Source: a virus (lineage: Duplodnaviria > Heunggongvirae > Uroviricota > Caudoviricetes). Taken from it: a DNA stretch of 39,927 bases. Positions within the stretch are counted from its first letter, which is position 1. Every line of letters begins with the position of its first letter. A program made the translations under genes and the position numbers. Where the stretch lies: IMG/VR virus record IMGVR_UViG_2711768036_000007. One strand, given 5' to 3'. Positions 1,690 through 38,901 of the stretch are shown in pieces. The notes beneath the pieces are model-generated. The model had not been told where the DNA came from. It saw nothing but the letters and a program-made list of their open reading frames with translations, and did no database searches.

Positions 1690-1704
1690 TGGTGTCCCCT
1701 GCAG
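1690..1704. repeat. Left attachment-site core (direct repeat, copy of argW 3-prime end)
   Basis: Exact 15-nt match to 38887..38901; its reverse complement CTGCAGGGGACACCA is the 3-prime end of tRNA-Arg argW as I recall it. Confidence 0.7.
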
Positions 1705-1763
1705 ACATCTACTTGACTCGGCAGGGGATTGATTAGAATGGTGTTTTTTAGATGTGAGAAATA

Positions 1764-1783
1764 TTTTACCCGCTATTTTACCC
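1764..1783 (+). promoter_or_regulatory. Putative integrase arm-type binding repeats (2 x TTTTACCC)
   Basis: TTTTACCC at 1764..1771 and 1776..1783; same octamer (both orientations) recurs next to the right att core at 38726..38770. Confidence 0.4.
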
Positions 1784-2023
1784 ATTGGCGCGGCTTAAGA
1801 GCTTATTTTTGAATTCACAATGATCACGATATAACCATCTTGCTCGCCCGTGGATAACTTTGGCTTTAGGCAGGTCTCCGGACTTAATCCGGTCATAGAT
1901 GAAGGTTTTACCGAAGCCAGTATCGGCCATGATGAATTTCAAATCAACCAGTGAATCAGGTTGTAGTTCGTGTTGCATGAGTGCTATCAGGTCTGGATAT
2001 CTTGATAAATGAAAATGCCTCAT
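1778..2023 (-). CDS. AlpA-family DNA-binding protein, probable excisionase/Xis
   Basis: Small ORF beside att site; motif TGFGKTFIYDRIKSGDLPKAKVIHGRARW resembles AlpA/Vis HTH; true start may be the internal Met (near 1978). Confidence 0.55.
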   Translation of the reverse strand: MRHFHLSRYPDLIALMQHELQPDSLVDLKFIMADTGFGKTFIYDRIKSGDLPKAKVIHGRARWLYRDHCEFKNKLLSRANG

Positions 2024-2038
2024 CGAGTGTGAGGCGGG

Positions 2039-2410
2039 TTAGTCCTTGCGTAGCTCGCTGATTCTTCTGTAAGTCTCTGGTGCTTTGTTCCCGTACGTCT
2101 TCATTTCAGACTTCAACAGAGCAACGAGTGAATCCCATTCGTTGAGGATTCCTTTGAATGCCGGAACGCGCTTTGCAACCTTGTCGAATGAATCTCTGAT
2201 TTCTGGAATCTGCTCAACAAGTGCAACGCATCGCCGAAAGTCTGCTGCGTCATGGGGAGCGCCGAAGTGATGACCATAGATATTCTTTTTCAGGCCACAT
2301 GCGATTGAGGCAAGAGTTGCGCTACTGATGCCGACATCGCCAGTTGATTGCCATTTCAAAACCTTCATAGCCAAATCTGACATTTCTTGTCTCCAATAAA
2401 AAACCGCCAT
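2039..2410 (-). CDS. Hypothetical early-left (ea region) protein, 123 aa
   Basis: ORF in track; start codon overlaps stop of upstream small ORF (TGATG coupling). Confidence 0.5.
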   Translation of the reverse strand: MAVFYWRQEMSDLAMKVLKWQSTGDVGISSATLASIACGLKKNIYGHHFGAPHDAADFRRCVALVEQIPEIRDSFDKVAKRVPAFKGILNEWDSLVALLKSEMKTYGNKAPETYRRISELRKD

Positions 2411-2577
2411 CAGGCGGCATGGTGTTCTTTCAGTTCTTCAATTCGAATATTGGTTACGTCTGCATGCGCTATCTGCGCCCATATCATCCAGTGGTCATAG
2501 CAGTCGTTGATGTTCTCTGCTTCGATAACTCTGTTGAATGGCTCTCCATTCCATTCACCTGTCACCCGGAAGTGCAT
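2410..2577 (-). CDS. Hypothetical small protein, 55 aa (MHFRVTGEWNGEPFNRVIEAEN...)
   Basis: Hand-translated; GGAG 8 nt upstream of ATG; stop overlaps start of 2039..2410; below the track 60-aa cutoff. Confidence 0.4.
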   Translation of the reverse strand: MHFRVTGEWNGEPFNRVIEAENINDCYDHWMIWAQIAHADVTNIRIEELKEHHAA

Positions 2578-2649
2578 TTATCATCTCCATAAAACAAAAC
2601 TCGCCGTAGCGAGTTCAGATAAAAGAAATCCCCGCGAATGCGAGGATTG

Positions 2650-2934
2650 TTATTCAGTGCCGATATTCACCTTTATCGCGAACACCTTTACCGGTTTATC
2701 GCCGAAGTGGGGATGTGTGATTGTCTTGATTTCATATCCGTCATACGGGACATCAATTCTGCGGCTGGAGTCGTCGCGCTTCGGATATCCCTTTGTGATA
2801 ATCAGGCGGTCATACTCGCGTAACATAATTCGCTTATTCCAGTAGTCATTACACAGGCGATACTCTTCCGTTTTCTCTCCGCGAATCATGGCATCGAAGT
2901 ATTCACCTTTAACGGCAAGTTGCAGGTTAGCCAT
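2650..2934 (-). CDS. ASCH/PUA-like (DUF3850-type) domain protein
   Basis: From internal Met: MANLQLAVKGEYFDAMIRGEKTEEYR resembles ASCH-like motif; GGAGG upstream; start overlaps upstream stop by 1 nt. Confidence 0.5.
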   Translation of the reverse strand: MANLQLAVKGEYFDAMIRGEKTEEYRLCNDYWNKRIMLREYDRLIITKGYPKRDDSSRRIDVPYDGYEIKTITHPHFGDKPVKVFAIKVNIGTE

Positions 2935-3194
2935 TACCGCACCTCCAGTTTCCATACCGCCTGACCAATCCGGCTGGCATAGGTATCTTTGGATACTGCT
3001 CCGTCTTTAGCCAGCTCCATAAGAATTTTGCGCAAATCTGCCGAACGCCATTCTTCATCAGGAAATTCCTTCTCCATTGCCAACCGCAGATTCCAGGTTG
3101 CTATCGTGAATGGATATTCCCCGCCGAGAGCTTTCTCTTGCAGGGCAGAACGGGAACGCATCACCTGCAAAACCTTCTCTTTTACATCCATCAT
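2934..3194 (-). CDS. Hypothetical ea-region protein, 86 aa
   Basis: ORF in track; ATGA-type overlap with upstream gene. Confidence 0.45.
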   Translation of the reverse strand: MMDVKEKVLQVMRSRSALQEKALGGEYPFTIATWNLRLAMEKEFPDEEWRSADLRKILMELAKDGAVSKDTYASRIGQAVWKLEVR

Positions 3195-3829
3195 TTTGCC
3201 TCCTGCGGCGGTTCTGGTAGTGGCATCCAGTGTGTGACATTGCTAATCAGACCATATTCATTAGTTTGAGGATGGTTGCCGTTATCGTCTCCATATTTAA
3301 GACTCTCCATAAAACCATAATGCTTATTCCCATTAACGCGCACAAAGCCGTAATAAGCTGGTATAACGCCGATCTCACACGTAATCAGCAAAGGAAAACT
3401 AGTTCTCCAATTTAGCTCGCCGATTACAGGCATTCTCTCACTACAGCTTATCCAACCATCCGGAGTTACCGGATTGTTGCCAGATAGCTCGTTCAACCTG
3501 TAAGTTTGGCTTACAGGTTCGGCTTCCAGTTCTGCTATGCGCTTCTCTGCGGCTTCCAGCTCAACACGCAGCTTCCCTACCGTTAGCGCAATTTCCTCGT
3601 TCTCCTGATCGCGGCGTTTTATGTATTGCTGGTCATCCAGTAGTGCCAGCACGGTTTCTGGTCCGGCCAGAAATTTGAAGGCGTTGAGCGCATCAATATC
3701 CACACCGTAATCTTTAAGTTCCTGTTCACTTAACAAATCATCATCAACTGGCAACATTAACAGGCGTTCCATTGCTTGAGTTGCACGTTCTGCCGCCATT
3801 CGCAGTGCCTGATAGTCAATCTTGCTCAC
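3191..3829 (-). CDS. Ead/Ea22-like protein with C-terminal DUF551-like domain
   Basis: 212 aa; coiled-coil N-part; C-terminal motif THWMPLPEPP typical of DUF551 prophage proteins (recollection). Confidence 0.5.
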   Translation of the reverse strand: MSKIDYQALRMAAERATQAMERLLMLPVDDDLLSEQELKDYGVDIDALNAFKFLAGPETVLALLDDQQYIKRRDQENEEIALTVGKLRVELEAAEKRIAELEAEPVSQTYRLNELSGNNPVTPDGWISCSERMPVIGELNWRTSFPLLITCEIGVIPAYYGFVRVNGNKHYGFMESLKYGDDNGNHPQTNEYGLISNVTHWMPLPEPPQEAK

Positions 3830-4133
3830 TGGTTGCCTCCTTTGCTGGGCTTTCTATCTTCTGAGTGGTTGTATCAAACTCAAACAACTTAACCACGTCA
3901 TCAAACAGGACATAATCGCCATCAGAATCTTCAGTCATGTCAGCGCCACAATCCTGACCGCACGAGTCACAACCACCCATATCAAGTTCGTATCGCTTCA
4001 GGTTTGCGATATTTGATAAATTCAGCGCCAGTACAGCCAGGTCATAAACCTCGTCAGCGGTATACCCTGCACCATGCCCATACATTTCAATGCGGGATAT
4101 GATTTCTTCTACACGTTGTTTTGTGATTGTCAT
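3816..4133 (-). CDS. Hypothetical ea-region protein, 105 aa, acidic Cys-rich
   Basis: ORF in track; start ATG overlaps stop of upstream small ORF. Confidence 0.45.
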
Positions 4134-4294
4134 TTTTTCCCACTCCGTAACATCGCATTCAGATATTTGTTTTGATTCACTGATGGAAAAGAATTTCTCT
4201 TAAGCAATTCCTCTCTCGATGGCATTGGCTTTACGCGTTGGCGAATAATCATTTCTGCCGGAAGAATGCCGGGATTGTATGCAAGTCCTCTCAT
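4130..4294 (-). CDS. Hypothetical small protein, 54 aa ([23 protein letters not shown]...)
   Basis: Hand-translated; AGAGGA RBS upstream; ATGA overlap with downstream gene. Confidence 0.4.
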
Positions 4295-4310
4295 GGTAAA
4301 TTCCTCTTTG

Positions 4311-4625
4311 TTAATTTATTCGTATGCCTGCTCTTTCTTCATCGAGTTTTTTTAGCTTGTATCGCATAGCTCTTACTGAATAAATTGAGCGGCAGGTTGC
4401 AATTGCTATTTCTTCTGCGGAGAACTTACCGAAAAGTGATACTTCGGCTCTTGTCCAGCGTCTTCCACGAAGTCGGCTAACAATGTCAGCGCCAATCCTT
4501 GTTGCTTTCGCCATTACTGCTTTTTCAGTCCTTTCCAGTTTTTCAGCGATAACTTCAACTGGCATTGTCGCCGCTACTTCGCGCAAGAAATCGACTTCCC
4601 ATTTCTCCCATGGAGTCTTTTTCAT
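4311..4625 (-). CDS. Hypothetical protein, 104 aa, internally repeated, possibly DNA-binding
   Basis: ORF in track; two similar W..E..L...IA segments. Confidence 0.45.
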
Positions 4626-4636
4626 AGTCGATACCG

Positions 4637-5125
4637 TTATTTGATAAGAAGTGAAGGTTTCCCAACTTTGAGTTGAGCGCCGGGGATATTTATTCCTGCT
4701 TTTAGTTGGTGTTTGATTGCCAGTTTGTCGGCTTTAATTGTCGTTTCAAACTCAACGTATTCAGGAGGAAGGGCGCTTGAGTCGATGATTTCTACAGTTT
4801 CTGACGGTTTGCGGATTGTTACCTGGTGAATACCTGCTCGAATCTTTTTCTTGCCAACCATTTCAAGCGATGACGCTATATACGCAATAATGCTGTCAAT
4901 CTTATTTTGAATTACTGCGGCTCGCTCATTTAGTGACTTTGCCTCTTCCTTGAGGCGTTCAGCATAACCAGATTCATTTTTAATAATGGCAAGAAGTTGC
5001 TCTATTTTATCGGTAAATTCTCCTTCCATGCCTTCTATTGTGTCAGCAATCATCTCTGGTTCTAAATCTGAATCCATCAATTTTGCGTATTCATTGGCAA
5101 TTTCATACAGTTTGCTCACTGGCAA
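4637..5125 (-). CDS. Coiled-coil protein next to recombinase (possibly Gp157-like accessory)
   Basis: 162 aa, directly downstream of RecT-like gene; family assignment is recollection only. Confidence 0.45.
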   Translation of the reverse strand: MPVSKLYEIANEYAKLMDSDLEPEMIADTIEGMEGEFTDKIEQLLAIIKNESGYAERLKEEAKSLNERAAVIQNKIDSIIAYIASSLEMVGKKKIRAGIHQVTIRKPSETVEIIDSSALPPEYVEFETTIKADKLAIKHQLKAGINIPGAQLKVGKPSLLIK

Positions 5126-6005
5126 CCTCCAGCTTCGCTTTGCATTCTATGTAAATGGCTTGTACGTTCTGCTGCAATTTCATTCCAGATGTCAGGCGAT
5201 ATGCTTCTGCAAAATATCGCTTCAAATCATCCATGTTTTCTGCCTGAGCCATTTCATCGCAAAGAAGTTGTGCTTTATCCATTATTTCCTGCTGGCGTTT
5301 CCGTTCATCTTCGCGGATATCTTCCTCTGATTTGTGCGGCATAACTGGTTCCTGATGCATACCTTCATCTTCGTTAAGAAGGTGAATGGCATTATCCAGT
5401 CGCTGGGCTTTAGGCCAGTATTTGCTGGCGCGTTTAACTATTGTTTTACGCGCCATCTCTTCCCAGAATGTTTTCCACGGTCCATTCTTTGCCTTGCTCG
5501 TTGCTTCCACAGCTTTAATTTCTGCCAGACTCATTTCTTCAGTCAGGTAGTCACCATCTGCTGTTTTAACCGTGCAATAACCTCCAACAATAGAGCCTCG
5601 CTCACCAAATGCGTTGTATTTGTGGGTTGGTGCTGAATCAAGGCCATTTGATTCATAGGTGTCGTTTGAGTACACCAGTTTGCATTGCCCCCACTTAATT
5701 GATCCTGTCGATTGCGCAAGATGAAGTAATCCCATGTAACTGATATCAAGGCACACCATGCCGTCGCGAGGAACCAGATAAGCCAGTTTGCTGGCCGGGT
5801 TTAAGGTGATGCCGATCGCCGCAACATTGATGATGGCGTTCTGTGCGCTGGTTGGATTTGCCAGTGCTGTTTTAGCCAGGTAATCGTTTTTCTGGAAATA
5901 CTGAATTGCAAACTGGCTTTCCTTAGCCCATGTCACCGTCTGTTCAGTCAATGCTCCGCAGAATAATTGCTCTTGCTGTTTAACGAATTCAACGATATTG
6001 CTCAT
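5103..6005 (-). CDS. RecT-family single-strand annealing recombinase
   Basis: Motif KNGPWKTFWEEMARKTIVKRASKYWP matches RecT conserved NGPW..HWEEMAKKTA region. Confidence 0.8.
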   Translation of the reverse strand: MSNIVEFVKQQEQLFCGALTEQTVTWAKESQFAIQYFQKNDYLAKTALANPTSAQNAIINVAAIGITLNPASKLAYLVPRDGMVCLDISYMGLLHLAQSTGSIKWGQCKLVYSNDTYESNGLDSAPTHKYNAFGERGSIVGGYCTVKTADGDYLTEEMSLAEIKAVEATSKAKNGPWKTFWEEMARKTIVKRASKYWPKAQRLDNAIHLLNEDEGMHQEPVMPHKSEEDIREDERKRQQEIMDKAQLLCDEMAQAENMDDLKRYFAEAYRLTSGMKLQQNVQAIYIECKAKLEVASEQTV

Positions 6006-6313
6006 GCAGCTTCTCCATAAATATGTCTGCGTTTGAATATTGCGAAGGCATATTCAGCCTTAACTCTTTCGGTTATTGCATCCCAGAACCATTCAGCTGC
6101 TTTTTCCTGATAGTTACAGTCATCATCTTCCAGCCAGTCGATAGCGTCCTTAGTGTGTTCATCTGGTTTATATGAGCGAAGCATTTCGCTTATTGGGTCG
6201 CAACGTTTGCAGAGACGATCAACTTCACTGTTGATTCGTTCGTAATCTTCATCGGTAAAACTTGCGATGATTTGCGATATTTCACGCTTATCATTCAGAG
6301 TCAGAATCATCAT
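6002..6313 (-). CDS. Hypothetical protein upstream of recT, 103 aa
   Basis: ORF in track; position of kil/gam-type accessory genes. Confidence 0.45.
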   Translation of the reverse strand: MMILTLNDKREISQIIASFTDEDYERINSEVDRLCKRCDPISEMLRSYKPDEHTKDAIDWLEDDDCNYQEKAAEWFWDAITERVKAEYAFAIFKRRHIYGEAA

Positions 6314-6394
6314 CTTTCTCCTGTTCTTTGTGCTGATTGAGCATTTCTTTCATCTGACGAATGAATTCTTCGTCTGACCAGTTATCTGTAAAAC

Positions 6395-6565
6395 TCATGG
6401 ACGGCCTTGTTGTTTCAAAATATCCCAAAGCTTTTCGAGCAAACTTTTCATTCTTGGTTGTTTAAAGTCTGCTCCGGTTAAAATATTTTTTCGTGAATGC
6501 TGTACCGATAAAATCGGGTTGAAAGGGCGAACCGATGCCGCCCCTGCAATAGCGAACTGTTGCAT
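6395..6565 (-). CDS. cIII: cIII-like protein (FtsH inhibitor), 56 aa
   Basis: From internal Met: MQQFAIAGAASV...SLLEKLWDILKQQGRP resembles lambda CIII (MQYAIAG...SLLERITRKLRDGWKRLIDILNQPGVP); AGGAG RBS upstream. Confidence 0.6.
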   Translation of the reverse strand: MQQFAIAGAASVRPFNPILSVQHSRKNILTGADFKQPRMKSLLEKLWDILKQQGRP

Positions 6566-6631
6566 AGGATGCTCCTTCTGTTTGATTGCATAACGAAAAC
6601 GCCTCTCGTGAAGCGTTATTGGTATGCATAT

Positions 6632-6655
6632 AAAAAGGCCCTCACATTGGAGGGC
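6632..6655 (-). terminator. Rho-independent terminator in the leftward operon (tL-like)
   Basis: Minus-strand hairpin GCCCTC-6nt-GAGGGC followed by U-run. Confidence 0.45.
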
Positions 6656-6791
6656 AAAGAAGATTTCCAATAATCAGAACAAGTCGGCTCCTGTTTAGTT
6701 ACGAGCGACATTGCTCCGTGTATTCACTCGTTGGAATGAATACACAGTGCAGTGTTTATTCTGTTGTTTATGCCAAAAATAAAGGCCACCG

Positions 6792-7043
6792 TCAGGCAGC
6801 CTTGTTGTAAATGTTACAGGTATCAAGTAAGTAATTAGATGGAGCGCCATAAATTATGAATTCATCGTTTGTCGGGTCCATCTCCATCTCTTGGCCTATT
6901 GCCATTCTTGCGTCAGTGTCATCAGCGGCGAAGCATAAAACAGCCCACGCACCCATTGTTTTAAAAAGAACTGCAATTGGCTGTGGTTTTACTGAATTTG
7001 CGTTAGCGCGAAAATCATAAATCGCACTTTCATGAAATTCCAT
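6792..7043 (-). CDS. Hypothetical protein between N and cIII, 83 aa
   Basis: ORF in track. Confidence 0.45.
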   Translation of the reverse strand: MEFHESAIYDFRANANSVKPQPIAVLFKTMGAWAVLCFAADDTDARMAIGQEMEMDPTNDEFIIYGAPSNYLLDTCNIYNKAA

Positions 7044-7051
7044 ATCTCACC

Positions 7052-7357
7052 TCAATCGTAATAAGCTGGAATTGATTTTCCGCGTTGCTTCTGGCGGCCT
7101 GAGCATGTCACACCCATTTCACTGCGTGGCTTGCGGTAGTAAATACGATTCTGTTTACGATCGACTTCTTCTGCCTTCTTGCAGCGAAGGCTTCCGAGTG
7201 ATGCTGCTTTATCTGCCCTGACGCAACCAGAGAGCTTTAGCGCAATTTTTCGCGCCAGTCGCTGCTCTTGCATTGCCTGTTCACGTTGAGCCTGTCTGCG
7301 TGCTCTGCGGCGATTTCTGGCGTTATCGTCAGCCAGATATGTAATGACTACTGTCAT
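7052..7357 (-). CDS. N-like transcription antitermination protein
   Basis: From internal Met (GGAGG RBS): arginine-rich motif DNARNRRRARRQAQREQA near N-terminus; first large gene downstream of nutL. Confidence 0.65.
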   Translation of the reverse strand: MTVVITYLADDNARNRRRARRQAQREQAMQEQRLARKIALKLSGCVRADKAASLGSLRCKKAEEVDRKQNRIYYRKPRSEMGVTCSGRQKQRGKSIPAYYD

Positions 7358-7689
7358 GTTGACCTCCGGGAAGGTACACATCCTTGTGTGTCGATGATTA
7401 TTTGTTTTTGCGTTCCCACATCCAGTCATCTACTTCAGACCAGATGGTGAAACCGAAGCCGATGGCGAATGTGGTAACTAAACCACCGAGAATTGGGTTG
7501 GTAATGATGTCTAACATTTTCTGTTCCTCAGATGATTAGCTTTGGTGGTGTGGTCGGTGGGAGACCCATTTCGACCCGCTTCGTCCGACTTCAATTCGGC
7601 AATAGTCCCGCAGGCCTCGCCGCTTTACGTGCGACATATTCCCGTCCATGAACCCTTCACCACACCCCAAAGCCAACTACTCTTTGGTT

Positions 7690-7729
7690 CCCGCATTTCG
7701 GCGGGACAATCCCATCAATGTTAAAGAGC
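7690..7729 (-). promoter_or_regulatory. nutL (boxA GCTCTTTAA plus boxB hairpin CCCGCCGAAATGCGGG)
   Basis: Same boxA/boxB pair, same 15-nt spacing, as the rightward copy at 9359..9401. Confidence 0.6.
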
Positions 7730-7777
7730 CTGCCAATCTGTTCCGTTTGGCTTCCAGCGTCCTGCTGATGGCTAAAG

Positions 7778-7863
7778 AATACTGTAGGTATTTTATTGTG
7801 TAAATACCCAAGGTATTTATTTTTGATGAAATAATGATAAACAAATGAATACAAAGGATATTT
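7778..7863. promoter_or_regulatory. OL operator cluster / PL region (AATAC-N5-GTATT sites)
   Basis: Palindromic 15-mers at 7778..7792 and 7803..7817, degenerate third at about 7849..7863; same motif in OR. Confidence 0.55.
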
Positions 7864-7948
7864 ATTTTTTCGCTGTCTGCTTGTTCAGTGATTTTTATGC
7901 GGGATATGTGAAGTGGATCCCGATAGCTATTGCTGCCGGGATTATGGG

Positions 7949-8317
7949 TTAGTCAGCGAAGGTTAAGACGAGAATTACCTTAATGATGTCTGCTACAACA
8001 GACACGGCCATAGATAAACCAAAGACGATCCAAGCCACAGTGATGTCTTCACTACCATCGTATAGAGTTCCGTAATCACTGGTGTAAGGCGTAAATGTCG
8101 CGCCTTGATACAATAGGTATAAGCTTGATTCATAGAGGATAAATGCAGATATCCCTTGTATTGCTATGATCACAAGAATCATGAAACGAGCTGATCTATG
8201 CGCCCAAGCCTGGCTTATTTTTTCTGATAGAGATTTCGCAATAAAAGCATGCGCTAAGCCGTAAATTGTCGAGATTGCCAACATCCCAAAAAAGCTTGCT
8301 ATAGCGGTTCCAACCAT
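7949..8317 (-). CDS. Small polytopic membrane protein co-transcribed downstream of cI (rex/sieB position)
   Basis: 122 aa from ATG with AAGGGG RBS (track ORF starts at TTG overlapping cI stop); about 4 hydrophobic helices; rare codons visible. Confidence 0.6.
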   Translation of the reverse strand: MVGTAIASFFGMLAISTIYGLAHAFIAKSLSEKISQAWAHRSARFMILVIIAIQGISAFILYESSLYLLYQGATFTPYTSDYGTLYDGSEDITVAWIVFGLSMAVSVVADIIKVILVLTFAD

Positions 8318-8334
8318 AATCGCCCCTTGCGTGA

Positions 8335-9051
8335 TCAAACCAGCCTTAGTTTTGTCTCAATTGCAACGCCTATAATCTTGCAGTTTCCATTGATTGGCAC
8401 GAGAGGCCATGCAGGATTAAGTCCCTTGAGGTATTTATTTCCGCCGTCGATTATCAGCTTCTTGAATGTTGCTTCGTTAGAGTCAGAAAGTTTTGCTATG
8501 ACCAAGCTGCCGTTGATCGCCTCCCTTCCGGTATCGAAAAGAACGAATGTTCCCTCTGGAATGCTTAACCCAACCGGTGCCGTCATTGAATCACCTTCCA
8601 CTTTAAGCCAGAACGCATTACCTTGAATATGCGCGTCAGACTCAAGCCAAACATCTATGTCTTTAATGGTGTATGGTTCGCATGCTTCACACCACGAGCC
8701 AGCCTGGATACTGCTTAACACCGGATACCTCTTTCCTGCTCTGTATTCCCCTGCATACCTTACGTTGGCATCGCTCTTAAGGCTTTCTGCCTGTTCTGCA
8801 ACCTTGGCAGCAATTGACTGGCTAAAATCAGCAATTGAGACTTGCAACAGTCGTGCAAAACCAGATGCAACCTCAACGTTTAGCGCGTTTCTGCCATTAA
8901 GATAATGCCCTACCGCTCCTTGGGTGATACCCAGTTCATCAGCGATTGAGTATTGGGTTATCCCCAATTCTTTCTTTTTTGACTCATACAAAGCCTTAAG
9001 CCGCTTAGCGTCTTCGAGCTGTTCTGTCGTCAGTGATTTTTTATTTTCCAT
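8335..9051 (-). CDS. cI: cI-type prophage repressor (N-terminal HTH, C-terminal S24 LexA-like domain)
   Basis: 238 aa; HTH segment ITQYSIADELGITQGAVGHYLNG; C-terminal GDSM and K motifs of S24 peptidases; divergent from cro across operators. Confidence 0.85.
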   Translation of the reverse strand: MENKKSLTTEQLEDAKRLKALYESKKKELGITQYSIADELGITQGAVGHYLNGRNALNVEVASGFARLLQVSIADFSQSIAAKVAEQAESLKSDANVRYAGEYRAGKRYPVLSSIQAGSWCEACEPYTIKDIDVWLESDAHIQGNAFWLKVEGDSMTAPVGLSIPEGTFVLFDTGREAINGSLVIAKLSDSNEATFKKLIIDGGNKYLKGLNPAWPLVPINGNCKIIGVAIETKLRLV

Positions 9052-9086
9052 AGCTTAATTCTAATAGCTAAGGTACTTAAACTAAA

Positions 9087-9126
9087 AATACCCTGAGTAT
9101 TGATTGCTTTGAATACCTGTAGTATT
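9087..9126. promoter_or_regulatory. OR operator sites / PR-PRM region
   Basis: AATACCCTGAGTATT (9087..9101) and AATACCTGTAGTATT (9112..9126) between divergent cI and cro. Confidence 0.6.
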
Positions 9127-9157
9127 CTTTGTTCATGGTTAATAACGGAGAGTGCAT

Positions 9158-9352: not shown

Positions 9353-9358
9353 TAACAC

Positions 9359-9401
9359 CGCTCTTTAACAGTCATGGTCCTCATTCCCGCCGAAATGCGG
9401 G
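9359..9401 (+). promoter_or_regulatory. nutR (boxA CGCTCTTTAACA plus boxB CCCGCCGAAATGCGGG)
   Basis: Between cro and cII; boxB identical to nutL copy. Confidence 0.65.
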
Positions 9402-15927: not shown

Positions 15928-16107
15928 GTTTGCACAACAGGTAAGAGCATTGAACCCGCAGACCTCGCGGAATTGGTGAAAGGTGCCGCGCAGTGCTCTT
16001 ATCGTTGTGGTGAAGCTCAATGGCGAGCTAGCAGATAGGCGACAGTGAAAATACTAGTCATGTAGCTGACCGCTGCGCGTACTGCAATCGGCAGCGCACC
16101 GATGGAA

Positions 16108-16132
16108 GCCGGTTCGATTCCGGCCGCCACAA
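16108..16132 (+). other. tRNA-like 3-prime fragment (T-arm GCCGG-TTCGATT-CCGGC plus acceptor-like strand), probable remnant
   Basis: Perfect T-arm consensus; no convincing full cloverleaf found by eye upstream. Confidence 0.3.
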
Positions 16133-30192: not shown

Positions 30193-30201
30193 GGGGTAAT
30201 C

Positions 30202-31533
30202 ATGGCTACTTGGCAAGGAACAAACGGCGGATTGTTGGCTGGTATCGGCGGCGTCAACTCAAACGCTCCGAGCGCAAATGACATCGGCAATACGCTTCAG
30301 TTTATCAGGCAGAACAATGATATTGAGCGTTCAGGCGCTAACAATGTTGGGCTGACTGCTTTGCAAGGTCTTTCAGGTATTGCAGGGGTGTTTCAGCAGG
30401 AAAAGCAGGCTCAGCGGCAGAAAGAATTTCAGCAGGCGTACGCTAATGCTTATGCGTCTGGTGATCGCGGTGCTTTGCGTCAGTTGGCTACTCAATATCC
30501 AGACCAGATTGAATCCGTTCGTAAAGGCATGGGATTCATTGATGAAGAGCAGCGTAATTCTATCGGCACCTTAGCGGCTGGCGCACGCCTTGCGTCATCG
30601 TCTCCAGAAGCAATGCAATCATGGCTGCAAAACAACGCCGGTGAGTTAGCTCGTGTTGGCGTTAATCCTCATGACGTCGCTCAGATGTACCAACAGAACC
30701 CGCGGCAGTTCGGCGAATTTGTCGATCACCTGGGGATGAACAGTCTCGGGCCCGAAAAATACTTTGACCTACAGGATAAAATGCAGGGTCGCCAGGTTAC
30801 CATGCGCGGTCAGGATCTGGATTCGCAAACCGCCGCTCGGAATCAGGCAATCACAATGCGCGGACAAGATATCCAGGCGAATTTAGGTCAGCAGCGCATT
30901 AATCTGGACGCAGAAACAAACCGCATTAACAACGAAAATAAGCGCCTTGACCGGATGCTATTAGCAGAAACTAACGACCTGAAGCGCCAGGAAATACAGA
31001 GCCGCATAGCAGCCAACAACCAGCAGTTGCAGCAGAAGCAGCAAGCGCTAAATGATGGCTACAAAGACGGCATCAACACCCTCACAACCAGCATGTTCAC
31101 TCTGAACGATATCGTTAGTTCTCCTTCACTTAAGAGCATTACAGGCTTACGTGGAGTAATCCCCAACGTTCCAGGCTCACAGGCTGCAGACACTCAGGCA
31201 CGACTTGATACCTTTAAATCCCAAGCATACCTGACAGCGGTTCAGGCCATGCGAGGCATGGGCGCACTTTCTGATGCCGAGGGCAAAAAGCTCGACCAGG
31301 CTGTTGGTTCGCTGCAGAACTCGCAGAGCGAGGAGTCCTTTCGTCGCAACGCTGGCGTCATCCTGAACACGCTCAACCAGAAGCGTAATGAGGCGGTTGG
31401 TAAGTACGTTCAGCAAAACGGTATCAAGCGAGTGGAAGCGCCTCAGGCTTCTATAGATTACCTGAAGCAGCACCCCGAGCTGTCAATCGACTTCATTAAT
31501 CGCTACGGATATCTTCCATCTTTGGGGCAGTAA
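30202..31533 (+). CDS. Ejection protein (P22 gp20-like)
   Basis: 443 aa, position as gp20. Confidence 0.65.
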   Translation: MATWQGTNGGLLAGIGGVNSNAPSANDIGNTLQFIRQNNDIERSGANNVGLTALQGLSGIAGVFQQEKQAQRQKEFQQAYANAYASGDRGALRQLATQYPDQIESVRKGMGFIDEEQRNSIGTLAAGARLASSSPEAMQSWLQNNAGELARVGVNPHDVAQMYQQNPRQFGEFVDHLGMNSLGPEKYFDLQDKMQGRQVTMRGQDLDSQTAARNQAITMRGQDIQANLGQQRINLDAETNRINNENKRLDRMLLAETNDLKRQEIQSRIAANNQQLQQKQQALNDGYKDGINTLTTSMFTLNDIVSSPSLKSITGLRGVIPNVPGSQAADTQARLDTFKSQAYLTAVQAMRGMGALSDAEGKKLDQAVGSLQNSQSEESFRRNAGVILNTLNQKRNEAVGKYVQQNGIKRVEAPQASIDYLKQHPELSIDFINRYGYLPSLGQ

Positions 31534-34161
31534 ATGGCTAATTACCGTGATTTGTTAGAGCAGGCTGGCGCACGTTACGGTGTGCCAGAAGGGTTGATGA
31601 CTGCACTGGGTGCCAAGGAGTCTTCTTACAACCCTGCCGCAGTAAGCTCCGCCGGGGCTGTAGGATTGACTCAGGTCATGCCTGGGACATGGCGTGATAT
31701 GGGTTATACCGATGAGCAAATGCAAAACCCCGAATATCAGGCTGACGCTGGCGCGCGCTATCTGGCAAAGATGTACCAGCAGTTTGGTAACTGGCGTGAC
31801 GCTCTTCAGGCTTATCACGACGGTCCCGGCAACGTTATGAAGGCAAAGCGTGGTGAATATACGCCAGGACCTGAAGGCCGCGGTTACGTTGATGATCGCT
31901 TTGCTCAATGGGCGGGTGACCCGGTGACAGACTCAACAGTCGAACAGCGCGCCACCTCTGCAAAGGTACATCCTCAGCAAGACCCTAACAACCCGTTTGC
32001 ACAACTGGAAGTACAGTCATCCGAACAAGTATCAGCATCAGGTGTGCAGTCAGACCCAAATAATCCATTTGCTCAGATTGAGCAGCAGGCAGCCAGTCAG
32101 CAGCCACCTCAACCCGTAAGTTCTGTCGCACCGAAACCTGTTCAGCAACAAACAGTTAATCAGGCCAATAATGAACCAGCACGTGAAGAACCATCATTGA
32201 TGCAACAAGCTGGCGATTGGCTCACAGGTGGTCAAAGTGCAGGGCAAATTGCAGAGCAGGCTGGTCGTGGTCTGGTAAACATACCATTCGACGTATTACA
32301 GGGCGGCGCAAGCCTGATTAATGCAATCAGTCAGGGGCTTGGTGGCCCCAAGGTTTTGGATGATGTTTATCGCCCTGTCGATCGACCGACAGACCCTTAC
32401 GCACAAGCCGGTGAAACAATTGGTGGGTATCTCCTGCCAATTGGCACAGCGGCAAAAGCTGCTGGAGCGACAGCAAAGCTCGCAGGAGACATCGGTTCCG
32501 CAGGAAACATGATTGCCGGTTCTCTTGCTGATGCTGCAAATCAGGAGGGTGATTTTGCACAAAATGCTGCCATTAACGGTGGTATCAATATTGGTGCTCA
32601 AGGCGTTATTTCAGGTGTCGGGCGCGTTATTGCGCCAAGGGTTTCACAGGCTCTTGGTGGTGCAGCACTGAATTCTGCTAATGATGTTTCCAGGATGGCA
32701 AAGTCAGGTGCTGGGCGTCAGTCAATTGCCAGTCAGGCCGCTAATGTGTCCGAAGATGTAGCAAAAGCGGCTGAGTCTGCTGGAATTGATATAAACGCAT
32801 TAACACCAGGAATGCGATCTGGAAGTCGTGGAATTGCACAAGCCGAAGGCGCATTGGCATCAACACCAGGGATTGTTCAGGATGCCCATCAGGCAGCATT
32901 TAACGAAATATCATCAAAGTTAAGTCGAAACCTTGATGAATTTGGGGCCGCATCTGGAACGGCATCAGAAAAAAGTGCGGCTATAAAACAAAGGATTCTT
33001 CAAAATCTTGATCAGATGAAGGATGCTGAGCGCGCGGCATGGGATGACGTGCGGTCAACAATGCCAAATCAAAAAGCAAGAATGCTAAATGGTAATGCCG
33101 TTATTCAGGCAGAGCGATCTGCTGGCATACCGCTTACTCCTGAAATGAAACAGTTTGTTCAGGCAAACAATCAAGGTGGAGTAACATTTGATGGCATGAA
33201 AGCATGGAGAGCGAAATTTGCTGATGCGGAGCAAAAATATAAGCGTAGCGGAGAGGTAAATGCGGCAAGGAGAGCAGGGGAAATACGTCGGGCAATTACT
33301 GATGATATGCGCACAATGGCGGAAAACGGCGGATTTTTTGATGACTGGCAAAAAGCTAATGATCTGTCTAAAGCGAGGCTATCCGCACAAGAGAGTGCAG
33401 AGTCTGTTTTTGGGCGTGATTTGGCAACAGATGCACTGATTACGAATGGAGTAAAATCTCTTCAATCATCGTCAGCTAAAGGTCTTAATGGTCCTGCTGG
33501 ATTCCATTCTATGATCCGCGCGCTGCCAGAATCAGAGCGCGTTCCTGCTATATCATCAATGTTGCAGGATGCTATCTCGCATGGTGTACGTGGTGGCAAA
33601 TCTGATGCAGCAGGAATTAACCATATCGCAGGGATACTTACCCCACAAAATGTAAAAGCCATTAGCAGATATTCCTCAGAACTTGGAAGAATTGCTGATG
33701 CATATGGCACTCTTGCAAGAGCAGCAGTGAAACCTCAGCAGTATATTGAAAGAACAGGGAGAACTGCCAATGTACTACGCGATCTGGATGCTGGTTTATC
33801 CAACGTCACATCAACAGTGTTAAATGCAATTGCCAACTCAACATCAGGTGCCATTGTTGGTGGCGCTGGAGGGGGTATTGCAGGCGCTGCCGCGGGTGCT
33901 TTAGTTGGCGCCGGGTTAAAAGGCGCTGTATCTAAAATTGCCACCACACGTAGTGGTCGATATGCGATAGAGAAAGCTGTTCAGGAAGCCACCAAAGCAG
34001 TAAGAGCAGGCGGAAGCAAAGAAGCATTAGCGGCGGCGGAACGCAGATTTATAGCAAATAAAGCCGCCGTAAAAGCAATACGCGATGCTATTGGTAGCGA
34101 TGAATTCAATCGCTTGTCGAGAGCTGGTATTGTCGCCTCGTTAAGCGGTATGAATGAATAG
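31534..34161 (+). CDS. Ejection protein (gp16 position) with N-terminal lytic transglycosylase (SLT) domain
   Basis: 875 aa; N-terminal GAKESSYNP...[10 protein letters not shown]...YHDGPG resembles SLT domain. Confidence 0.65.
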
Positions 34162-34163
34162 CT

Positions 34164-34649
34164 TTATCTAATGTTGCTGCTACTGTTGCATGTGACGGTG
34201 TTTCCAAATCCTGAATTGCAGTTTGTATATGTGTCAACGCGCGTTGGGTAAGGTTGAGTTATAACAGGCTGGCGCGCTTTTTGCTCGATCGCTTGCATTG
34301 TGTTTACAGCCTGATAATTCAACAAAGCCTGCTGGAATGCTTGGCTTTGTGCTATTTGTTGGGCTTGTTCTTGGCTTTGTAATTGAACATAAAGATTCTG
34401 AAGCTCAAGTCTTGCCTGTGCGTCACTTATCTTGCCTTCATCGACACCTTGCCCGAGCATCTTTGCAGCAAGGACATACAGCTTAGGTGTTGGTGCTGAT
34501 GCCATGCGTGAGTCGTTCTTCACACTGGCATCAAGGCAATTAGCCATATCGCTAAGCTTTTGATAGCGTTGTTCGCAACTTGCTTGATAGTCACTTACTT
34601 TTGCGCATCCAACCAGCAGAAGCGGGATAATTAACAGTGATTTTTTCAT
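34164..34649 (-). CDS. Lipoprotein, Gln-rich, at the sieA position downstream of mnt
   Basis: From internal Met with AAGGAG RBS: signal MKKSLLIIPLLLVGC (lipobox LVGC); 161 aa; converges on end of ejection gene. Confidence 0.65.
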   Translation of the reverse strand: MKKSLLIIPLLLVGCAKVSDYQASCEQRYQKLSDMANCLDASVKNDSRMASAPTPKLYVLAAKMLGQGVDEGKISDAQARLELQNLYVQLQSQEQAQQIAQSQAFQQALLNYQAVNTMQAIEQKARQPVITQPYPTRVDTYTNCNSGFGNTVTCNSSSNIR

Positions 34650-34719
34650 ATGGTTAACTCTCCTTAGTTTTTCACAGGATATCATGAAGGCAATGCCATT
34701 TTAGCCGGAAACTAGATTT

Positions 34720-34986
34720 CTATGTTTCCTTTTTATTATTGATATACATGGTCTTAAGCGTTTCAAAAACCATTTTCTTAACCATATCAGATTGTTGTTC
34801 TGCTATACGCTCTGCATCGTCAATGTAAACGGATGCAGAGCTTTGTTTAGCCAATGATTCTTCAATCGCTGCAATTATCTCTGAGTTCAGCGACCTGTTA
34901 TTCATCTTTGCACGCTGTTTAATTTTCGCGTGGAGTTCATGCGGAAGTCTCAAGTGAAACTGCGCCTCGTCGTATTTGCTGTACAT
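34720..34986 (-). CDS. mnt: Mnt-like repressor (ribbon-helix-helix, Arc/MetJ family)
   Basis: From internal Met: FHLRLPHELHAKIKQRAKMNNRSLNSEII...DDAERIAEQQSDMVKKMVFETLK resembles P22 Mnt (NDAERLADEQSELVKKMVFDTLK). Confidence 0.7.
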   Translation of the reverse strand: MYSKYDEAQFHLRLPHELHAKIKQRAKMNNRSLNSEIIAAIEESLAKQSSASVYIDDAERIAEQQSDMVKKMVFETLKTMYINNKKET

Positions 34987-35121
34987 CCGTGATGCCTCAC
35001 CAGTTGGGTGGAATGGCATCGTAAAACCTACTGTACAAATCAACAATCGTACCATTTCGGTATGTAACAAATGCCAACCGTAGCCATGCTGCGGCGATTC
35101 CTTGTATCTGGAGCAAATTAA

Positions 35122-37359
35122 ATGACAGACATTACAGCCAATGTGATCGTATCAATGCCTTCGCAACTCTTCACTATGGCGCGTTCTTTTAAAGCCGTAG
35201 CCAATGGCAAAATTTATATCGGTAAAATTGACACTGACCCGGTAAATCCTGAAAACCAGATTCAGGTTTATGTAGAGAATGAAGACGGTTCTCACGTTCC
35301 TGTTTCTCAACCAATCATCATTAACGCTGCTGGTTACCCTGTATATAACGGACAGATTGCCAAATTCGTTACCGTGCAAGGCCATTCTATGGCTGTTTAT
35401 GATGCGTATGGTGCACAGCAGTTCTATTTTTCGAATGTGCTGAAGTATGACCCTGACCAACTCAGGCAAGATCTTGCATCTCAAGGAGGTGTTAATCTGG
35501 TAAACGGAGCTATCTCACAGGAAGATCTTGTTTTGCAGTCGATCACAAAAATTCCAAGTTATGATAATTCTAACGTAGTCCAGGCGTGGCGCGATAGTGT
35601 TGCGACCTACGGGTATGTTTACTTCTCTAATCATTCAAAAAATCAGATGGTGTACACCGTACCGTCTACAGCTGCTAACGCTTCTTTCCTTGCGAACAGT
35701 AAAGTAATCATTGATAAAAATGTCACCCTGAGATTCGACAGTGATCTGTACTCACTGTTTAAATCGTTGCAGTACGAGGGGGAGGGTACGTTTGAATTTA
35801 CGCACCTGAACTTTAAAGCAACCGGTGGAGAAGTGGATTATCTGGCTAAGCAGGCCATCCTCAACCGAAACCCTATTCGCATGAAGCGAGTGGAATGGTC
35901 AGATTGTAAAGTTTATTCCATAAATGGTGACACGTTCTTCTATGAAGGTGAAGTCACCATATCCTCAGATAGCGCAGCTATCTTCCCCTTAACTACTGAC
36001 CGTACAACAGGCCTGTTCGCACCAATAGATATTGGAGAGCATATTTCTGCACATATTCGTATGGAATCTCAGGCCGCCTCAGAAGTTGGGATTGTTCTGC
36101 GATGCTCTGGTGGTTGGATGATGTTCTATGGGGCACCAGGTGCTACACAGTGGTCTTATAGACAGAAACCAATTGGTGGTCCAGTAGCAGAAGGAACTCC
36201 ATTCCCGCTGCCAGGAGGTTTACTGTCGTACGCCCCGGGCAAAGCAACCGTTGGCGTATCACTGCAAGGTAAAAACTGGGCGCAGATAACGATGAATGGC
36301 GTTGGGATACGCTTGCCCTTTGATACTGCTGATGTAGGGGATGTATACGAAGTTGGGTTTGTTGCACTGACCCCGGCATCTGGAGGTTCTGCGCGTGTAA
36401 CTGGATTATGCAGCTACACCTCTGATAATGGTGTGCACGGTAAGCCTCCACTTAATATCCTTATCCACGGTGATAGTACAGCTGAGGATTTCATTTCCGC
36501 GTTCAGCTCGTACATTCCGCAATTAATGGATGGAGCGAACGGCCACCGTTCACATAGCATTGTAAACAAGGCAGTTGCCGGACAGACAATGAGGCAACAG
36601 TTAGATCTCCTGAAGGCTCAGGGGCCGGGTGATGCTTACATCGTTATTATGGTTGCCGGAACTAACGAAGGGCAGGCAAACCAAAACGGCGATTATATGG
36701 CGGCACTGATAGATGAGTTTGTCTTATATTGCAATGGCCTTGGTCGTATCCCTGTTTGGGTTGAGCCGTGGATGTGGTATAGCCAGTCATTTATTGGCGG
36801 TGCTGGTCAACCATCAGCAAATTACGATGGTGTTGCGGAGTTACGCGAGGCTGGTAAACGCCAGATGATGAAATATGGCAATAACGTCATTTGTGTAACA
36901 ACAACTCACCAGCTCCCGGCCCCATATCCAGAGTATTTCAACACGCAATACGACCCACTTCTGCGTGATGACATTCACCAAAGCCAGTTAGGGTATCGTC
37001 TGTATGCGGAAATTATCTGCTCTGCCATTATCGACTGGTGGTCGCGTGTTGATTACACGCCAAGAGCAGCTGTTCAATGGTGGGCTGGAACAAACGTAAC
37101 AGTACAGGAACCGTCAAGTTTAACTGCCAATTCAATTAATATTAAACTGGCAGCCACTTCATTTGCGAATGGCAATACTGTTCTAACGCTTCCGAGGTGG
37201 TGCAGACCAAAAGTAACCAAAAATGTCCCTGTACCGTTCACTGCTGATGGCGTTTCATTTGGCATGGCAATGGCCACCATTAATGCTTCAACAGGACAAA
37301 TATCGATTGAAGGGTCCACCACTACATCTCCAACGTTCTACATAGATGCGACATGGTAG
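35122..37359 (+). CDS. Tailspike: P22-type N-terminal head-binding domain fused to a domain with SGNH-esterase signature
   Basis: N-terminus [43 protein letters not shown] resembles P22 gp9; downstream blocks IHGDS, VAGQT, GTNE, DDIHQS fit SGNH blocks I, II, III, V. Confidence 0.8.
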
Positions 37360-37365
37360 TAAAAA

Positions 37366-37388
37366 CATGGAGGCAATACGCCTCCATG
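37366..37388. terminator. Perfect 8-bp hairpin between tailspike and int (U-run only for leftward transcripts)
   Basis: CATGGAGG-7nt-CCTCCATG; A-run upstream on plus strand. Confidence 0.4.
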
Positions 37389-37567
37389 CTAATAACTCAA
37401 ATGCTCTTAAAATACTCTTAAGGAGATGATCAGCGCTTTTATTAACATCAACCATCTATGTGCGTTATAGGTTAATTATCTCCATGTGATGGCAGACAAA
37501 ACTGAGACACACAAAGCTTTGCACTGGATTGCAAGGCTTTGTGCTCTTAGATAGTAGTTAAGGTGGA

Positions 37568-38761
37568 TCACTCCACCTTCCCATCAAGCCATTCCGCCCA
37601 CCACTGCATCATTTCTCTGCGCTTATCTAGATACTGAGCATGGTTGTAAATCCCGCGCACAGATCCGCCGTTGGCATGTGCAAGTTGCACTTCAATAGCG
37701 TCAGCAGGCCATTCGTGCTCGTTCATAATCGTGCTGAATTCATGCCTGAATCCGTGACCGCTTTCCAGACCCTCATAGCCGATTTGTTTAATCACAAGTA
37801 GCACCGCGTTCTCGCAGATTGGCTTCTTCTTATCGTTGCGTCCGGCAAAAACAAACTCTGATACTGGTTTGGTGATTGAGCTTAGCGTAGTGAGAAGTTC
37901 AACCACCTGGTCTGACATAGGAACCACATGAATTTTGCGTCCCTTCATCACACTGGCGTCGATAGTGATAATCCTGTTTTCAAAATCGACGTTCTTCCAT
38001 TGCATGGAACGAAGCTCTTTCGTTCTTAGGGCTGTGTAGCGTAAAACTTTGGTCGCAATGAGCGATACGATGCTTCCTGAAAATGTTGCCAGTGCTTTGT
38101 TGAATGCCGGGATCTGGTCTGCAGGAAGAAACGGGAAGTTCTTCTTGCGGTATCCCTTCATGGCGTCAGCAAGGTCAGGTGCCGGGTTATATTTAGCCCT
38201 TCCGGTGACAATAGCGTAACGGAAAACCTCGCCGCATCTTCTGCGTGCTTTGTTGGCTCGCTCCATTGCACCGCGATCTTCAAATCTGCGGATTACTTCC
38301 AGCAGTTGCATCGGCTCAATATCCTGAATCTCAAGACCGCCGATGATGGGTAAAATGTCGTCATCAAACATTTTTGCAAGTTCAGTCGCATACCCTACTG
38401 ACCAGACTTGCTTCTTGTGTTCGTACCATTCCTTGTAAATTGCACTAAAGGAATTGTTGTTAGACGAAGCCTTTTTCGCTTTTACCGGATCGATGCCAAC
38501 CGAGATGTCTTTCCTCGCAGTCCATGCTTTATCCCTTGCCTCCTGCAAAGTCATAAGCGGATATTTTCCTACGGTCAGGATTTTCTCCTTACCGTCAATC
38601 TTGTAGCGAAGCTGCCATACCTTTTTCCCTGACACAGGGACATAAAGGTACAGGCCATTACCATCGAGTAGGCGGTATGGTTTTTCTTTCGGCTTTGCTG
38701 CTTCAATCTGCTTAACGGTGAGCATGGGTAAAAATCCGGTGGGTAAAATTATTTTATCCAC
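37568..38761 (-). CDS. int: Tyrosine integrase (P4-type)
   Basis: 397 aa; C-terminal catalytic region with HGFRHEF and Y motif; next to att core and tRNA remnant. Confidence 0.9.
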   Translation of the reverse strand: MDKIILPTGFLPMLTVKQIEAAKPKEKPYRLLDGNGLYLYVPVSGKKVWQLRYKIDGKEKILTVGKYPLMTLQEARDKAWTARKDISVGIDPVKAKKASSNNNSFSAIYKEWYEHKKQVWSVGYATELAKMFDDDILPIIGGLEIQDIEPMQLLEVIRRFEDRGAMERANKARRRCGEVFRYAIVTGRAKYNPAPDLADAMKGYRKKNFPFLPADQIPAFNKALATFSGSIVSLIATKVLRYTALRTKELRSMQWKNVDFENRIITIDASVMKGRKIHVVPMSDQVVELLTTLSSITKPVSEFVFAGRNDKKKPICENAVLLVIKQIGYEGLESGHGFRHEFSTIMNEHEWPADAIEVQLAHANGGSVRGIYNHAQYLDKRREMMQWWAEWLDGKVE

Positions 38762-38770
38762 TTTTTACCC
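38726..38770. promoter_or_regulatory. Putative integrase arm-type repeats (GGGTAAAA x2 and TTTTACCC) overlapping int 5-prime end
   Basis: Same octamer as at 1764..1783. Confidence 0.4.
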
Positions 38771-38886
38771 GTCATGGAGTGCGGCTGTCAACGATCTGAC
38801 GCGAACCATTACGAACTGTGAATCTACGGAAGGCTTGATATTCAGGGGATTTTGCGGACTGGTACGGATGGGAGCGAACTGATAAA

Positions 38887-38901
38887 TGGTGTCCCCTGCA
38901 G
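38887..38901. repeat. Right attachment-site core (direct repeat)
   Basis: Exact 15-nt match to 1690..1704. Confidence 0.7.

Follow-up and report, generated by a model that had tools for sequence, protein, structure and literature searches.

The 15-bp sequence TGGTGTCCCCTGCAG, found at positions 1690-1704 and 38887-38901 of the window (the whole stretch of 39,927 nucleotides analysed), almost certainly marks where a P22-like prophage, inserted in argW by way of the well-studied IntS/TorI system, truly begins and ends. This boundary finding is correct but ordinary, the attachment sites being already known, and its use is limited to annotation: the core, arm repeats, TorI sites and int/xis layout were published for HK620 (2001), Sf6 (2004), KplE1 (2007-2012) and Kapi1 (2022). 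New here are the lack of a detectable tRNA gene and two gaps in the draft assembly, one of 42 bp in argW and one of 62 bp before torI. These private gaps are either assembly errors or lesions that would impair excision and lysogenisation. The features referred to below, with their positions and strands, are as follows.

1-1248, plus strand: cscB-type oligosaccharide MFS transporter, host left flank; same annotation at the collinear position in MS6192 and FORC_069
1249-1689, no strand: host spacer on the B' side of attB, pseudogene debris only; within the 846/846 empty-site match
1690-1704, plus strand: attR core, argW 3' end (displaced copy), reading as the reverse complement of CTGCAGGGGACACCA; core sequence in PMC2951348 and PMC8787464
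1695-1728, no strand: inverted repeat TCCCCTGCAGA / TCGGCAGGGGA, reaching across the core edge into the P arm; conserved in Klebsiella relatives
1705-38886, no strand: prophage body, 37,182 bp, a P22-like (Lederbergvirus) mosaic
1762-1783, plus strand: P-arm IntS arm-type sites (predicted), two direct copies of TATTTTACCC at a distance of 12 bp; they overlap the stop codon of torI
1778-1978, minus strand: torI, recombination directionality factor (excisionase), 66 aa; annotated as torI in MS6192
1988-1989, no strand: junction of the private 62-bp gap, upstream of torI
35122-37359: tailspike, preceding the integrase
37568-38725, minus strand: intS, tyrosine integrase, 385 aa; annotated as 'prophage integrase IntS' in B7A
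38726-38770, no strand: P'-arm IntS arm-type sites (predicted), with GGGTAAAA at 38726 and 38741, TTTTATCC at 38752-38759 and TTTTACCC at 38763
38786-38791, minus strand: intS promoter -35 hexamer TTGACA, abutting TorI site I5 (position predicted from the DNA)
38792-38816, minus strand: TorI sites I5 (GATCG), I4 (GTTCG) and I3 (GTTCG), 10 bp apart; pentamers and block geometry from PMC2951348
38855-38879, minus strand: TorI sites I2 (GTCCG) and I1 (GTTCG)
38887-38901, plus strand: attL core, the phage-supplied argW 3' end; the 16-bp attP core of HK620 is this sequence plus the preceding A
38887-38919, minus strand: argW remnant, with tRNA nt 1-18 running straight into nt 61-75; the 42 bp of nt 19-60 absent, junction between 38901 and 38902
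38995-39927, minus strand: yfdC, host right flank

Both copies of the 15-mer lie on the plus strand and are exact, as the initial annotation had claimed. That annotation had named additional copies as what would count against its reading; the window was scanned and no third copy was found, even with 2 mismatches allowed. None of the shuffled controls (0/100) reached 2 copies. The reverse complement of the sequence is the 3' end of argW, the tRNA-Arg(CCU) gene, and the duplicated core comprises 15 of the 16 nt of that end (CTGCAGGGGACACCA[T]), the 16th nt being present at attL only. Owing to a different host flank, the duplicated identity is 15 bp here and 16-17 bp elsewhere in other hosts; E. 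coli K-12 has 16 nt, and the flank here is the cscB side, not the dsdC side. The window core equals the KplE1 core CTGCAGGGGACACCAT (PMC2951348) and the annotated 16-bp attP core of HK620 and Sf6, and the annotated attL core of CUS-3 matches likewise; the att of Kapi1 was given as AATGGTGTCCCCTGCAG (PMC8787464). In an alignment with the Klebsiella relatives the GCAGGGG arm of the inverted repeat at 1695-1728 was invariant, and this repeat may represent candidate core-type IntS half-sites.

Joining the window flanks as P' arm, core and P arm gave a predicted attP, which was matched continuously and in one piece, between int and torI, in the free phages Sf6 (98.1%), IME10, HK620, N7 and HF4s. 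Joining the host flanks with the tRNA restored gave a predicted empty attB, for which many prophage-free E. coli chromosomes showed an unbroken 846/846 match and 1414 genomes at least 80% coverage. Comparison with the argW region of prophage-free strains was a check that the initial annotation had proposed, and the two rebuilt sites support its placing of the prophage boundaries at the cores, which are exact to the nucleotide. Its placement of attP between xis and int, as in Sf6-type phages, agrees with the arrangement in Sf6, HK620 and Kapi1 (PMC8787464). The right junction is common to 1709 of 5426 complete E. coli genomes; an IntS element occupies it in about a third of them.

On the host side, the cscB-type gene is 99.6-99.8% identical to its MS6192/FORC_069 counterpart with no indels. 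Stops break all six reading frames of the spacer that follows, and no gene annotation was found in the corresponding region of FORC_069. We are highly confident that the prophage is inserted in the argW 3' end, between cscB and yfdC. Its body encodes a repressor, O-like initiator, primase/helicase, RecT, Q, lysis genes, terminase, portal, coat, ejection proteins and tailspike; the P22-type portal, coat, gp10, ejection proteins and head-binding tailspike stand in P22 order, which places it with Lederbergvirus.

Genome size and late-gene order are the same as in the P22-like argW phages, whereas the early region and tailspike are mosaic, the best phage covering just 52% of window positions 1700-25000. 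In HK620, Sf6, CUS-3, IME10 and Kapi1 attP also lies between int and xis, and identity over the int-attP-torI stretch is 97-98%; the window matches the core and attP repeats that were originally annotated in HK620, Sf6 and CUS-3. KplE1 (CPS-53) of E. coli K-12 shares the core, an identical TorI, five pentamers in the same layout with the -35 abutting I5, TAAA arm sites and an attL region, including intS, that is 99.4% identical in K-12 derivatives (DH5alpha). However, KplE1 is a 16-ORF remnant, whereas the window holds a full-length P22-like genome in which argW is interrupted.

The integrase gene was located at the tailspike end, where the initial annotation had put it; it adjoins attL and is transcribed away from the tRNA, and its Pfam domains are Arm-DNA-bind_3, Phage_int_M and Phage_integrase (arm-binding, central and catalytic). 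The AlpA-like Xis assigned to the other end needs correction. An excisionase gene does lie there, next to attR and opposite the integrase, but its product is TorI: 66/66 residues are identical to PDB 1Z4H (Tor inhibition protein), and a Pfam search of the 81-aa ORF containing it gave no family at E <= 0.01, hence no AlpA.

Published TorI sites are GTTCG, GATCG and GTCCG pentamers found on attL only, with I5 abutting the intS -35 (PMC2951348). Five such pentamers stand in two attL blocks of the window with the intS promoter overlapping attL, as judged by sequence and spacing, and the I1-to-I3 offset of 63 nt equals that between the published K-12 block coordinates. PintS was placed in the window from the literature description; a consensus promoter scan did not return it, the -10 (GTAAAA/TAAAAA) failing the T6 rule of the tool. 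Two att primers published for in vitro work, attL-SpeI and attR-IHF2, match window positions 38703-38726 and 1784-1803. An ORF at 38718-38882, counterpart of Kapi1 hyp25/Chronis gp28, was rejected as a gene, with substitutions even over the codon positions (15/14/11) and an internal stop in one homolog.

The octamers GGGTAAAA/TTTTACCC occur 7 times in the window versus about 1.3 expected, a 5-fold enrichment, and five of the seven (1764, 1776, 38726, 38741 and 38763) lie within about 165 bp of the cores. The repeat units are really 9-10 nt long (TATTTTACCC twice, TGGGTAAAA twice), and the degenerate copy TTTTATCC had been overlooked in the first reading. The P-arm sites coincide with the HK620 attP repeat feature 1441-1463, and those of the P' arm with features 1207-1232 and 1232-1253. 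In Klebsiella phages that are ~79% identical overall the octamers persist (the P-arm sites with 1 mismatch each) while the intervening spacers drift. A TAAA motif is reported for all IntS P' arm-type sites, of which P'1 overlaps the -10 (PMC2951348), and the window has TAAA-containing candidate sites on its arms. The copy of TTTTACCC at 38763 (P'1) overlaps the predicted PintS -10 at 38762-38768. With the HK620 repeats, the TAAA motif and the arm-binding domain of IntS all in agreement, the initial annotation's arm-type repeats beside both cores are well supported; the assignment of individual octamers to P1, P2 and P'1-P'3 is our own mapping and should be read as probable.

It is highly improbable that the octamers are excisionase or IHF sites instead: the window by itself cannot tell which protein binds them, and the primer name 'IHF2' at attR implies IHF sites close by, but the published TorI pentamers are on attL only and located elsewhere (38792-38879), the octamers are on both arms as arm-type sites are, and the TAAA-bearing P'1 overlaps the -10 at exactly the position of TTTTTACCC (38762-38770).

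The 37.2-kb P22-like prophage was almost certainly integrated by IntS-type tyrosine recombination at the 3' end of argW, through the recombination module characterised for KplE1 (CPS-53), which HK620, Sf6, CUS-3 and Kapi1 also have. Pairing of proteins with sites follows the literature: the C-terminal domain of IntS would carry out strand exchange within the shared core, its N-terminal arm-binding domain would bind the GGGTAAAA-type sites of both arms, and TorI would direct excision from the five GTTCG-type attL sites. IntS and TorI would also repress intS because attL overlaps the intS promoter. The identity of this module and the presence and spacing of its sites were observed directly; its functioning in this strain is inferred. 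The system resembles lambda Int/Xis/attP in its heterobivalent tyrosine integrase, core and arm-type sites and winged-helix RDF. Unlike in lambda, int and the RDF gene are at opposite prophage ends and separately transcribed, the int-proximal attL carries the RDF sites and overlaps the int promoter (PMC2951348).

The initial annotation had assumed an intact argW, which proved wrong. No tRNA gene was found in the window by ARAGORN or Rfam, and 33 of 75 nt of argW are left, the 42 bp of tRNA body being absent from exactly the core edge onward. The gene is intact in B7A and GCA_025797765.1. Integration regenerates the tRNA as a rule (PMC8787464), and the window departs from this rule, argW not being regenerated intact at attL in this assembly. 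The B-side flank of the attL core is D-arm sequence instead, and the published attL-KpnI primer site falls within the 42 bp that are absent; the window therefore lacks part of the attL substrate defined in vitro. There is a weak resemblance, at 10/20 positions, of the new attL flank CCATTTAAC to the phage P flank ACATCTAC, a post hoc comparison that is not significant.

The second gap shortens the torI-upstream spacer to 60 bp, versus 122 bp in other assemblies. The 62-bp segment of the relatives that is absent here contains the cII-dependent integration promoter (pI) annotated in HK620, with cII box TTGCCTGATTTGC, as well as a terminator-like hairpin and an argW-like 16-mer. Neither this junction nor that in argW was found in 5426 complete E. 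coli genomes, GTDB representatives, IMG/VR or JGI metagenomes. Both gaps are present in the deposited source draft assembly GCA_001268545.1, whose contig here is CXWX01000008.1, and were not introduced in the window.

Errors in a draft Illumina-type assembly, the real strain having an intact argW and an ordinary module, are the explanation we favour by a little. Besides the uniqueness of both junctions, the source is a multi-contig WGS draft, and neither gap has microhomology at its ends; spontaneous E. coli deletions without microhomology are unusual. The argW gap starts at the core edge, where reads from attL, attR, attP and attB would diverge in an assembly graph, and each gap removed one copy of the 16-mer GGAATCGAACCTGCAA. 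Nevertheless, the contig is unbroken through both sites with no Ns, collinearity with relatives is perfect over the rest of the window, the pseudo-tRNA region between Q and holin is unaffected, and no assembler step can be named that gives gaps of two different sizes at a 16-nt repeat, which usual k-mers exceed in length. A Velvet-style k-1 artefact (42 = 43-1) was considered, but the second gap is 62 bp and a single k cannot explain both. If artefactual, the gaps are a warning of silently corrupted att/tRNA junctions in draft assemblies.

The possibility that the gaps are real and the prophage grounded, with argW dead and both the host-side attL core flank and the cII-dependent promoter/terminator lost, falls somewhat short of even. 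Consistent with it, the gaps stand already in the NCBI deposit, and each affects functional elements of the module (the argW body and B half-site in one case, the annotated pI and cII box of HK620 in the other). In another strain, whose tailspike and IntS proteins are identical, argW is intact, which implies that the loss would be recent. Argument from general knowledge goes both ways: argW is dispensable, as argU also reads AGG, and lambda genetics provides cases of Int-promoted deletions that start at the att core, but a tyrosine integrase could not achieve intramolecular synapsis over as little as 42 bp. The lack of microhomology, which led us to reject slippage deletion, also weighs against real gaps, as do the lack of a second sighting and the unexplained 16-mer coincidence. 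Shared loss of the argW-like 16-mer would hint at a sequence-directed event and not random deletion. More tentatively still, the gaps may both be real and be linked to each other, the module having recently suffered a double lesion that would lock an otherwise complete P22-like prophage in the chromosome. Real gaps would provide a natural full-length prophage immobilised by att and integration-promoter damage at the cost of a tRNA gene, and grounding of this kind would be a step toward prophage fixation in the chromosome.

Systematic removal of tRNA-like sequence was also considered for the two gaps and rejected, since the region of a T-arm-like fragment between Q and holin (16095-16130) is collinear with HK75 and 611R6.

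As the initial annotation had stated, the window contains just two copies of the 15-mer TGGTGTCCCCTGCAG, one at 1690-1704 and the other at 38887-38901. No third copy was present in the window even at two mismatches, and none of the shuffled sequences attained two copies. In alignment with E. coli B7A, whose annotation places a 75-nt tRNA-Arg between intS and yfdC, this core proved to be the 3' end (...CTGCAGGGGACACCA) of the tRNA-Arg(CCU) gene argW, in reverse complement. The cores bracket all phage genes, as had been claimed; to the left of the first core, the 441-bp spacer belongs to the host backbone and contains nothing but pseudogene debris.

Prophage, recombination genes and host flanks
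1-1248, host left flank, cscB-type sugar transporter; the window begins at its start codon
1705-38886, prophage body, 37,182 bp, full-length P22-like mosaic
1778-1978, minus, excisionase, 66/66 identical to TorI (PDB 1Z4H)
37568-38725, minus, integrase IntS, 385 aa
38887-38919, minus, argW remnant, with a gap junction at 38901/38902
38995-39927, minus, host right flank, yfdC; the window ends at its start codon

The prophage body encodes a repressor, O-like initiator, primase/helicase, RecT, Q, terminase, portal, coat, ejection proteins and a head-binding tailspike. A predicted attP, in which a single core links the arm on the int side to the arm on the xis side, aligned with free phages without a break at the joint (Sf6 98.1%, IME10 97.8%, HK620 97.2%), and was also found in one piece in N7, HF4s and other free phages. 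A predicted empty attB was built by placing one core between the two host flanks and putting back the tRNA body; it matched 846/846, in one piece, in many prophage-free E. coli chromosomes, and at least 80% of it was covered in 1414 genomes. The empty site of FORC_069 reads cscB, tRNA-Arg, yfdC with no intervening gene. Because both reconstructions matched in one piece and the right junction was common to 1709 of 5426 complete E. coli genomes, the insertion endpoints are exactly the 15-mer. Neither extra copies of the 15-mer nor differing endpoints in related strains, which would have spoken against the proposed boundaries, were found. Between cscB and the core, the minus-strand frames at 1330-1560 hold coding debris riddled with stops, and a DUF4942 protein is annotated in this neighbourhood in some genomes, which suggests that an older island at argW left a remnant in the host spacer.

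Pfam recognises arm-DNA-binding, central and catalytic domains in the integrase, which is annotated as IntS in relatives. An AlpA-like Xis had been placed at the opposite end; its position held, and the AlpA family assignment was not supported (no Pfam match). The core of KplE1 is CTGCAGGGGACACCAT, and HK620, Sf6 and CUS-3 share its module (Panis et al., PMC2951348). The core annotated in the Sf6 and CUS-3 records is the same as that of the window, and the 16-bp 'attP core' of the HK620 record maps to 38886-38901. Kapi1 has the same att sequence and int/xis layout, and its integration leaves argW intact (Pick et al., PMC8787464). The one-piece attP in free phages and the annotated Sf6 and HK620 cores bear out the Sf6-type argW reading with attP between xis and int. 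The recombination system is one already characterised in detail, and the initial interpretation is supported with small corrections. Three comparison loci (L014, L017 and L020, ~2995-4730) are arranged differently: an integrase of 420-428 aa with an Arm-DNA-bind_3 domain comes immediately after the same 123-aa early-left protein and a 66-aa TorI-sized gene, so that xis and int are adjacent, whereas they are split in the window.

The octamers GGGTAAAA/TTTTACCC numbered seven in the window versus ~1.3 expected, and five copies lay beside the cores within ~165 bp, in agreement with the initial annotation. The true repeat unit is longer, at 9-10 nt. In the HK620 record, four 'attP' repeat features correspond in position to the octamer clusters; among the copies covered is the one within int, near 38348.

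Arm repeats
TATTTTACCC, left arm, two copies
TGGGTAAAA, right arm, two copies
TTTTTACCC, inverted copy
TTTTATCC, 38752-38759, degenerate copy, overlooked initially

In KplE1, attL carries five TorI sites (GTTCG, GATCG, GTCCG) in two 28-nt blocks, TAAA is present in every IntS arm-type P' site, P'1 overlaps the intS promoter -10, and TorI site I5 adjoins the -35 (PMC2951348). Sites predicted in the window were read on the minus strand from the core towards intS.

Predicted TorI sites and promoter elements on attL
38875-79, minus, GTTCG, predicted TorI site
38855-59, minus, GTCCG, predicted TorI site
38812-16, minus, GTTCG, predicted TorI site
38802-06, minus, GTTCG, predicted TorI site
38792-96, minus, GATCG, predicted TorI site
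38786-91, minus, TTGACA, directly after GATCG; then 17 nt, then GTAAAA inside GGGTAAAAA

The two TorI blocks are offset by 63 nt, as they are in the published K-12 coordinates. Two Klebsiella phages are ~79% identical across this stretch. The octamers stay in place in both, as do the core, a GCAGGGG inverted-repeat arm and four of the five TorI pentamers, while the spacers between kept sites drift. An ORF overlying the TorI sites and intS promoter (38718-38882, plus, 54 codons), the counterpart of 'hyp25' in Kapi1 and of gp28 in Klebsiella phage Chronis, is unlikely to be a gene: its substitutions show no preference for any codon position (15/14/11), and one homolog contains an internal stop. 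Since the sites persist while spacers drift and the overlying ORF appears non-coding, conservation here probably reflects DNA sites.

Neither ARAGORN nor Rfam found a tRNA gene in the window. Compared with B7A and GCA_025797765.1, a strain whose tailspike and IntS proteins are identical to those of the window, tRNA nt 19-60 (42 bp) are absent, and the gap begins at the first post-core base. The NCBI draft GCA_001268545.1 (contig CXWX01000008.1) has 0 mismatches to the window over 8806 nt and the same argW gap, which was therefore not introduced in preparing the window. Through this gap the two arms of a perfect 7-nt inverted repeat, TAAATGG / CCATTTA (38883-38889 / 38902-38908), come to lie 12 nt apart, on either side of the 12 nt that are left of the core.

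Relative to all relatives, the window also lacks 62 bp at 1988/1989, just upstream of torI, again as a clean gap; the spacer before the TorI-sized gene is 60 bp in the window versus 122 bp in every other assembly in which such a gene follows the same neighbour. The HK620 counterpart holds an annotated 'phage integration' promoter and cII box TTGCCTGATTTGC, and that of MS6192 also contains a terminator-like hairpin. In this phage group an argW-like degenerate fragment lies upstream of torI (HK620, 983-1031; MS6192, 2240-2301), with a 16-nt perfect T-arm match and flanking similarity to the argW 3' half; the fragment, which overlaps both the pI promoter and the cII box as annotated, may have been left by an earlier att junction.

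The 16-mer GGAATCGAACCTGCAA was lost in both gaps, from the argW T-arm and from the argW-like fragment, and no close copy is left in the window, which is otherwise collinear with relatives. Neither junction was found in the 5426 complete E. coli genomes, GTDB representatives, IMG/VR or JGI metagenomes. Clean deletions without microhomology are rare in E. coli. No microhomology was found at the ends of either gap, and the argW gap begins precisely where att-junction reads diverge; for these reasons we lean slightly towards an assembly artefact in both cases. Were the gaps real lesions instead, argW would no longer function, the attL core would have a different host-side flank (the in vitro attL substrate, as published, reaches 21 nt into the missing argW segment) and the cII-dependent integration promoter would be gone, so that the prophage would plausibly be grounded. 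These private gaps stand as a side observation beside an already known att system.

Between Q and the holin is a tRNA-like fragment, GGAAGCCGGTTCGATTCCGGCCGCCAC (16095-16130, plus), made up of a T-arm and an acceptor-like 3' end; ARAGORN and Rfam made no tRNA call there, and HK75 and other phages carry it at the matching position. The P22 gp16-type DNA-transfer protein (31534-34161, plus, 875 aa) has an N-terminal SLT lytic-transglycosylase domain; in a strain with an identical tailspike (L003) a gp16-type product of 667 aa has no SLT match on record, though its gene runs off the locus end.
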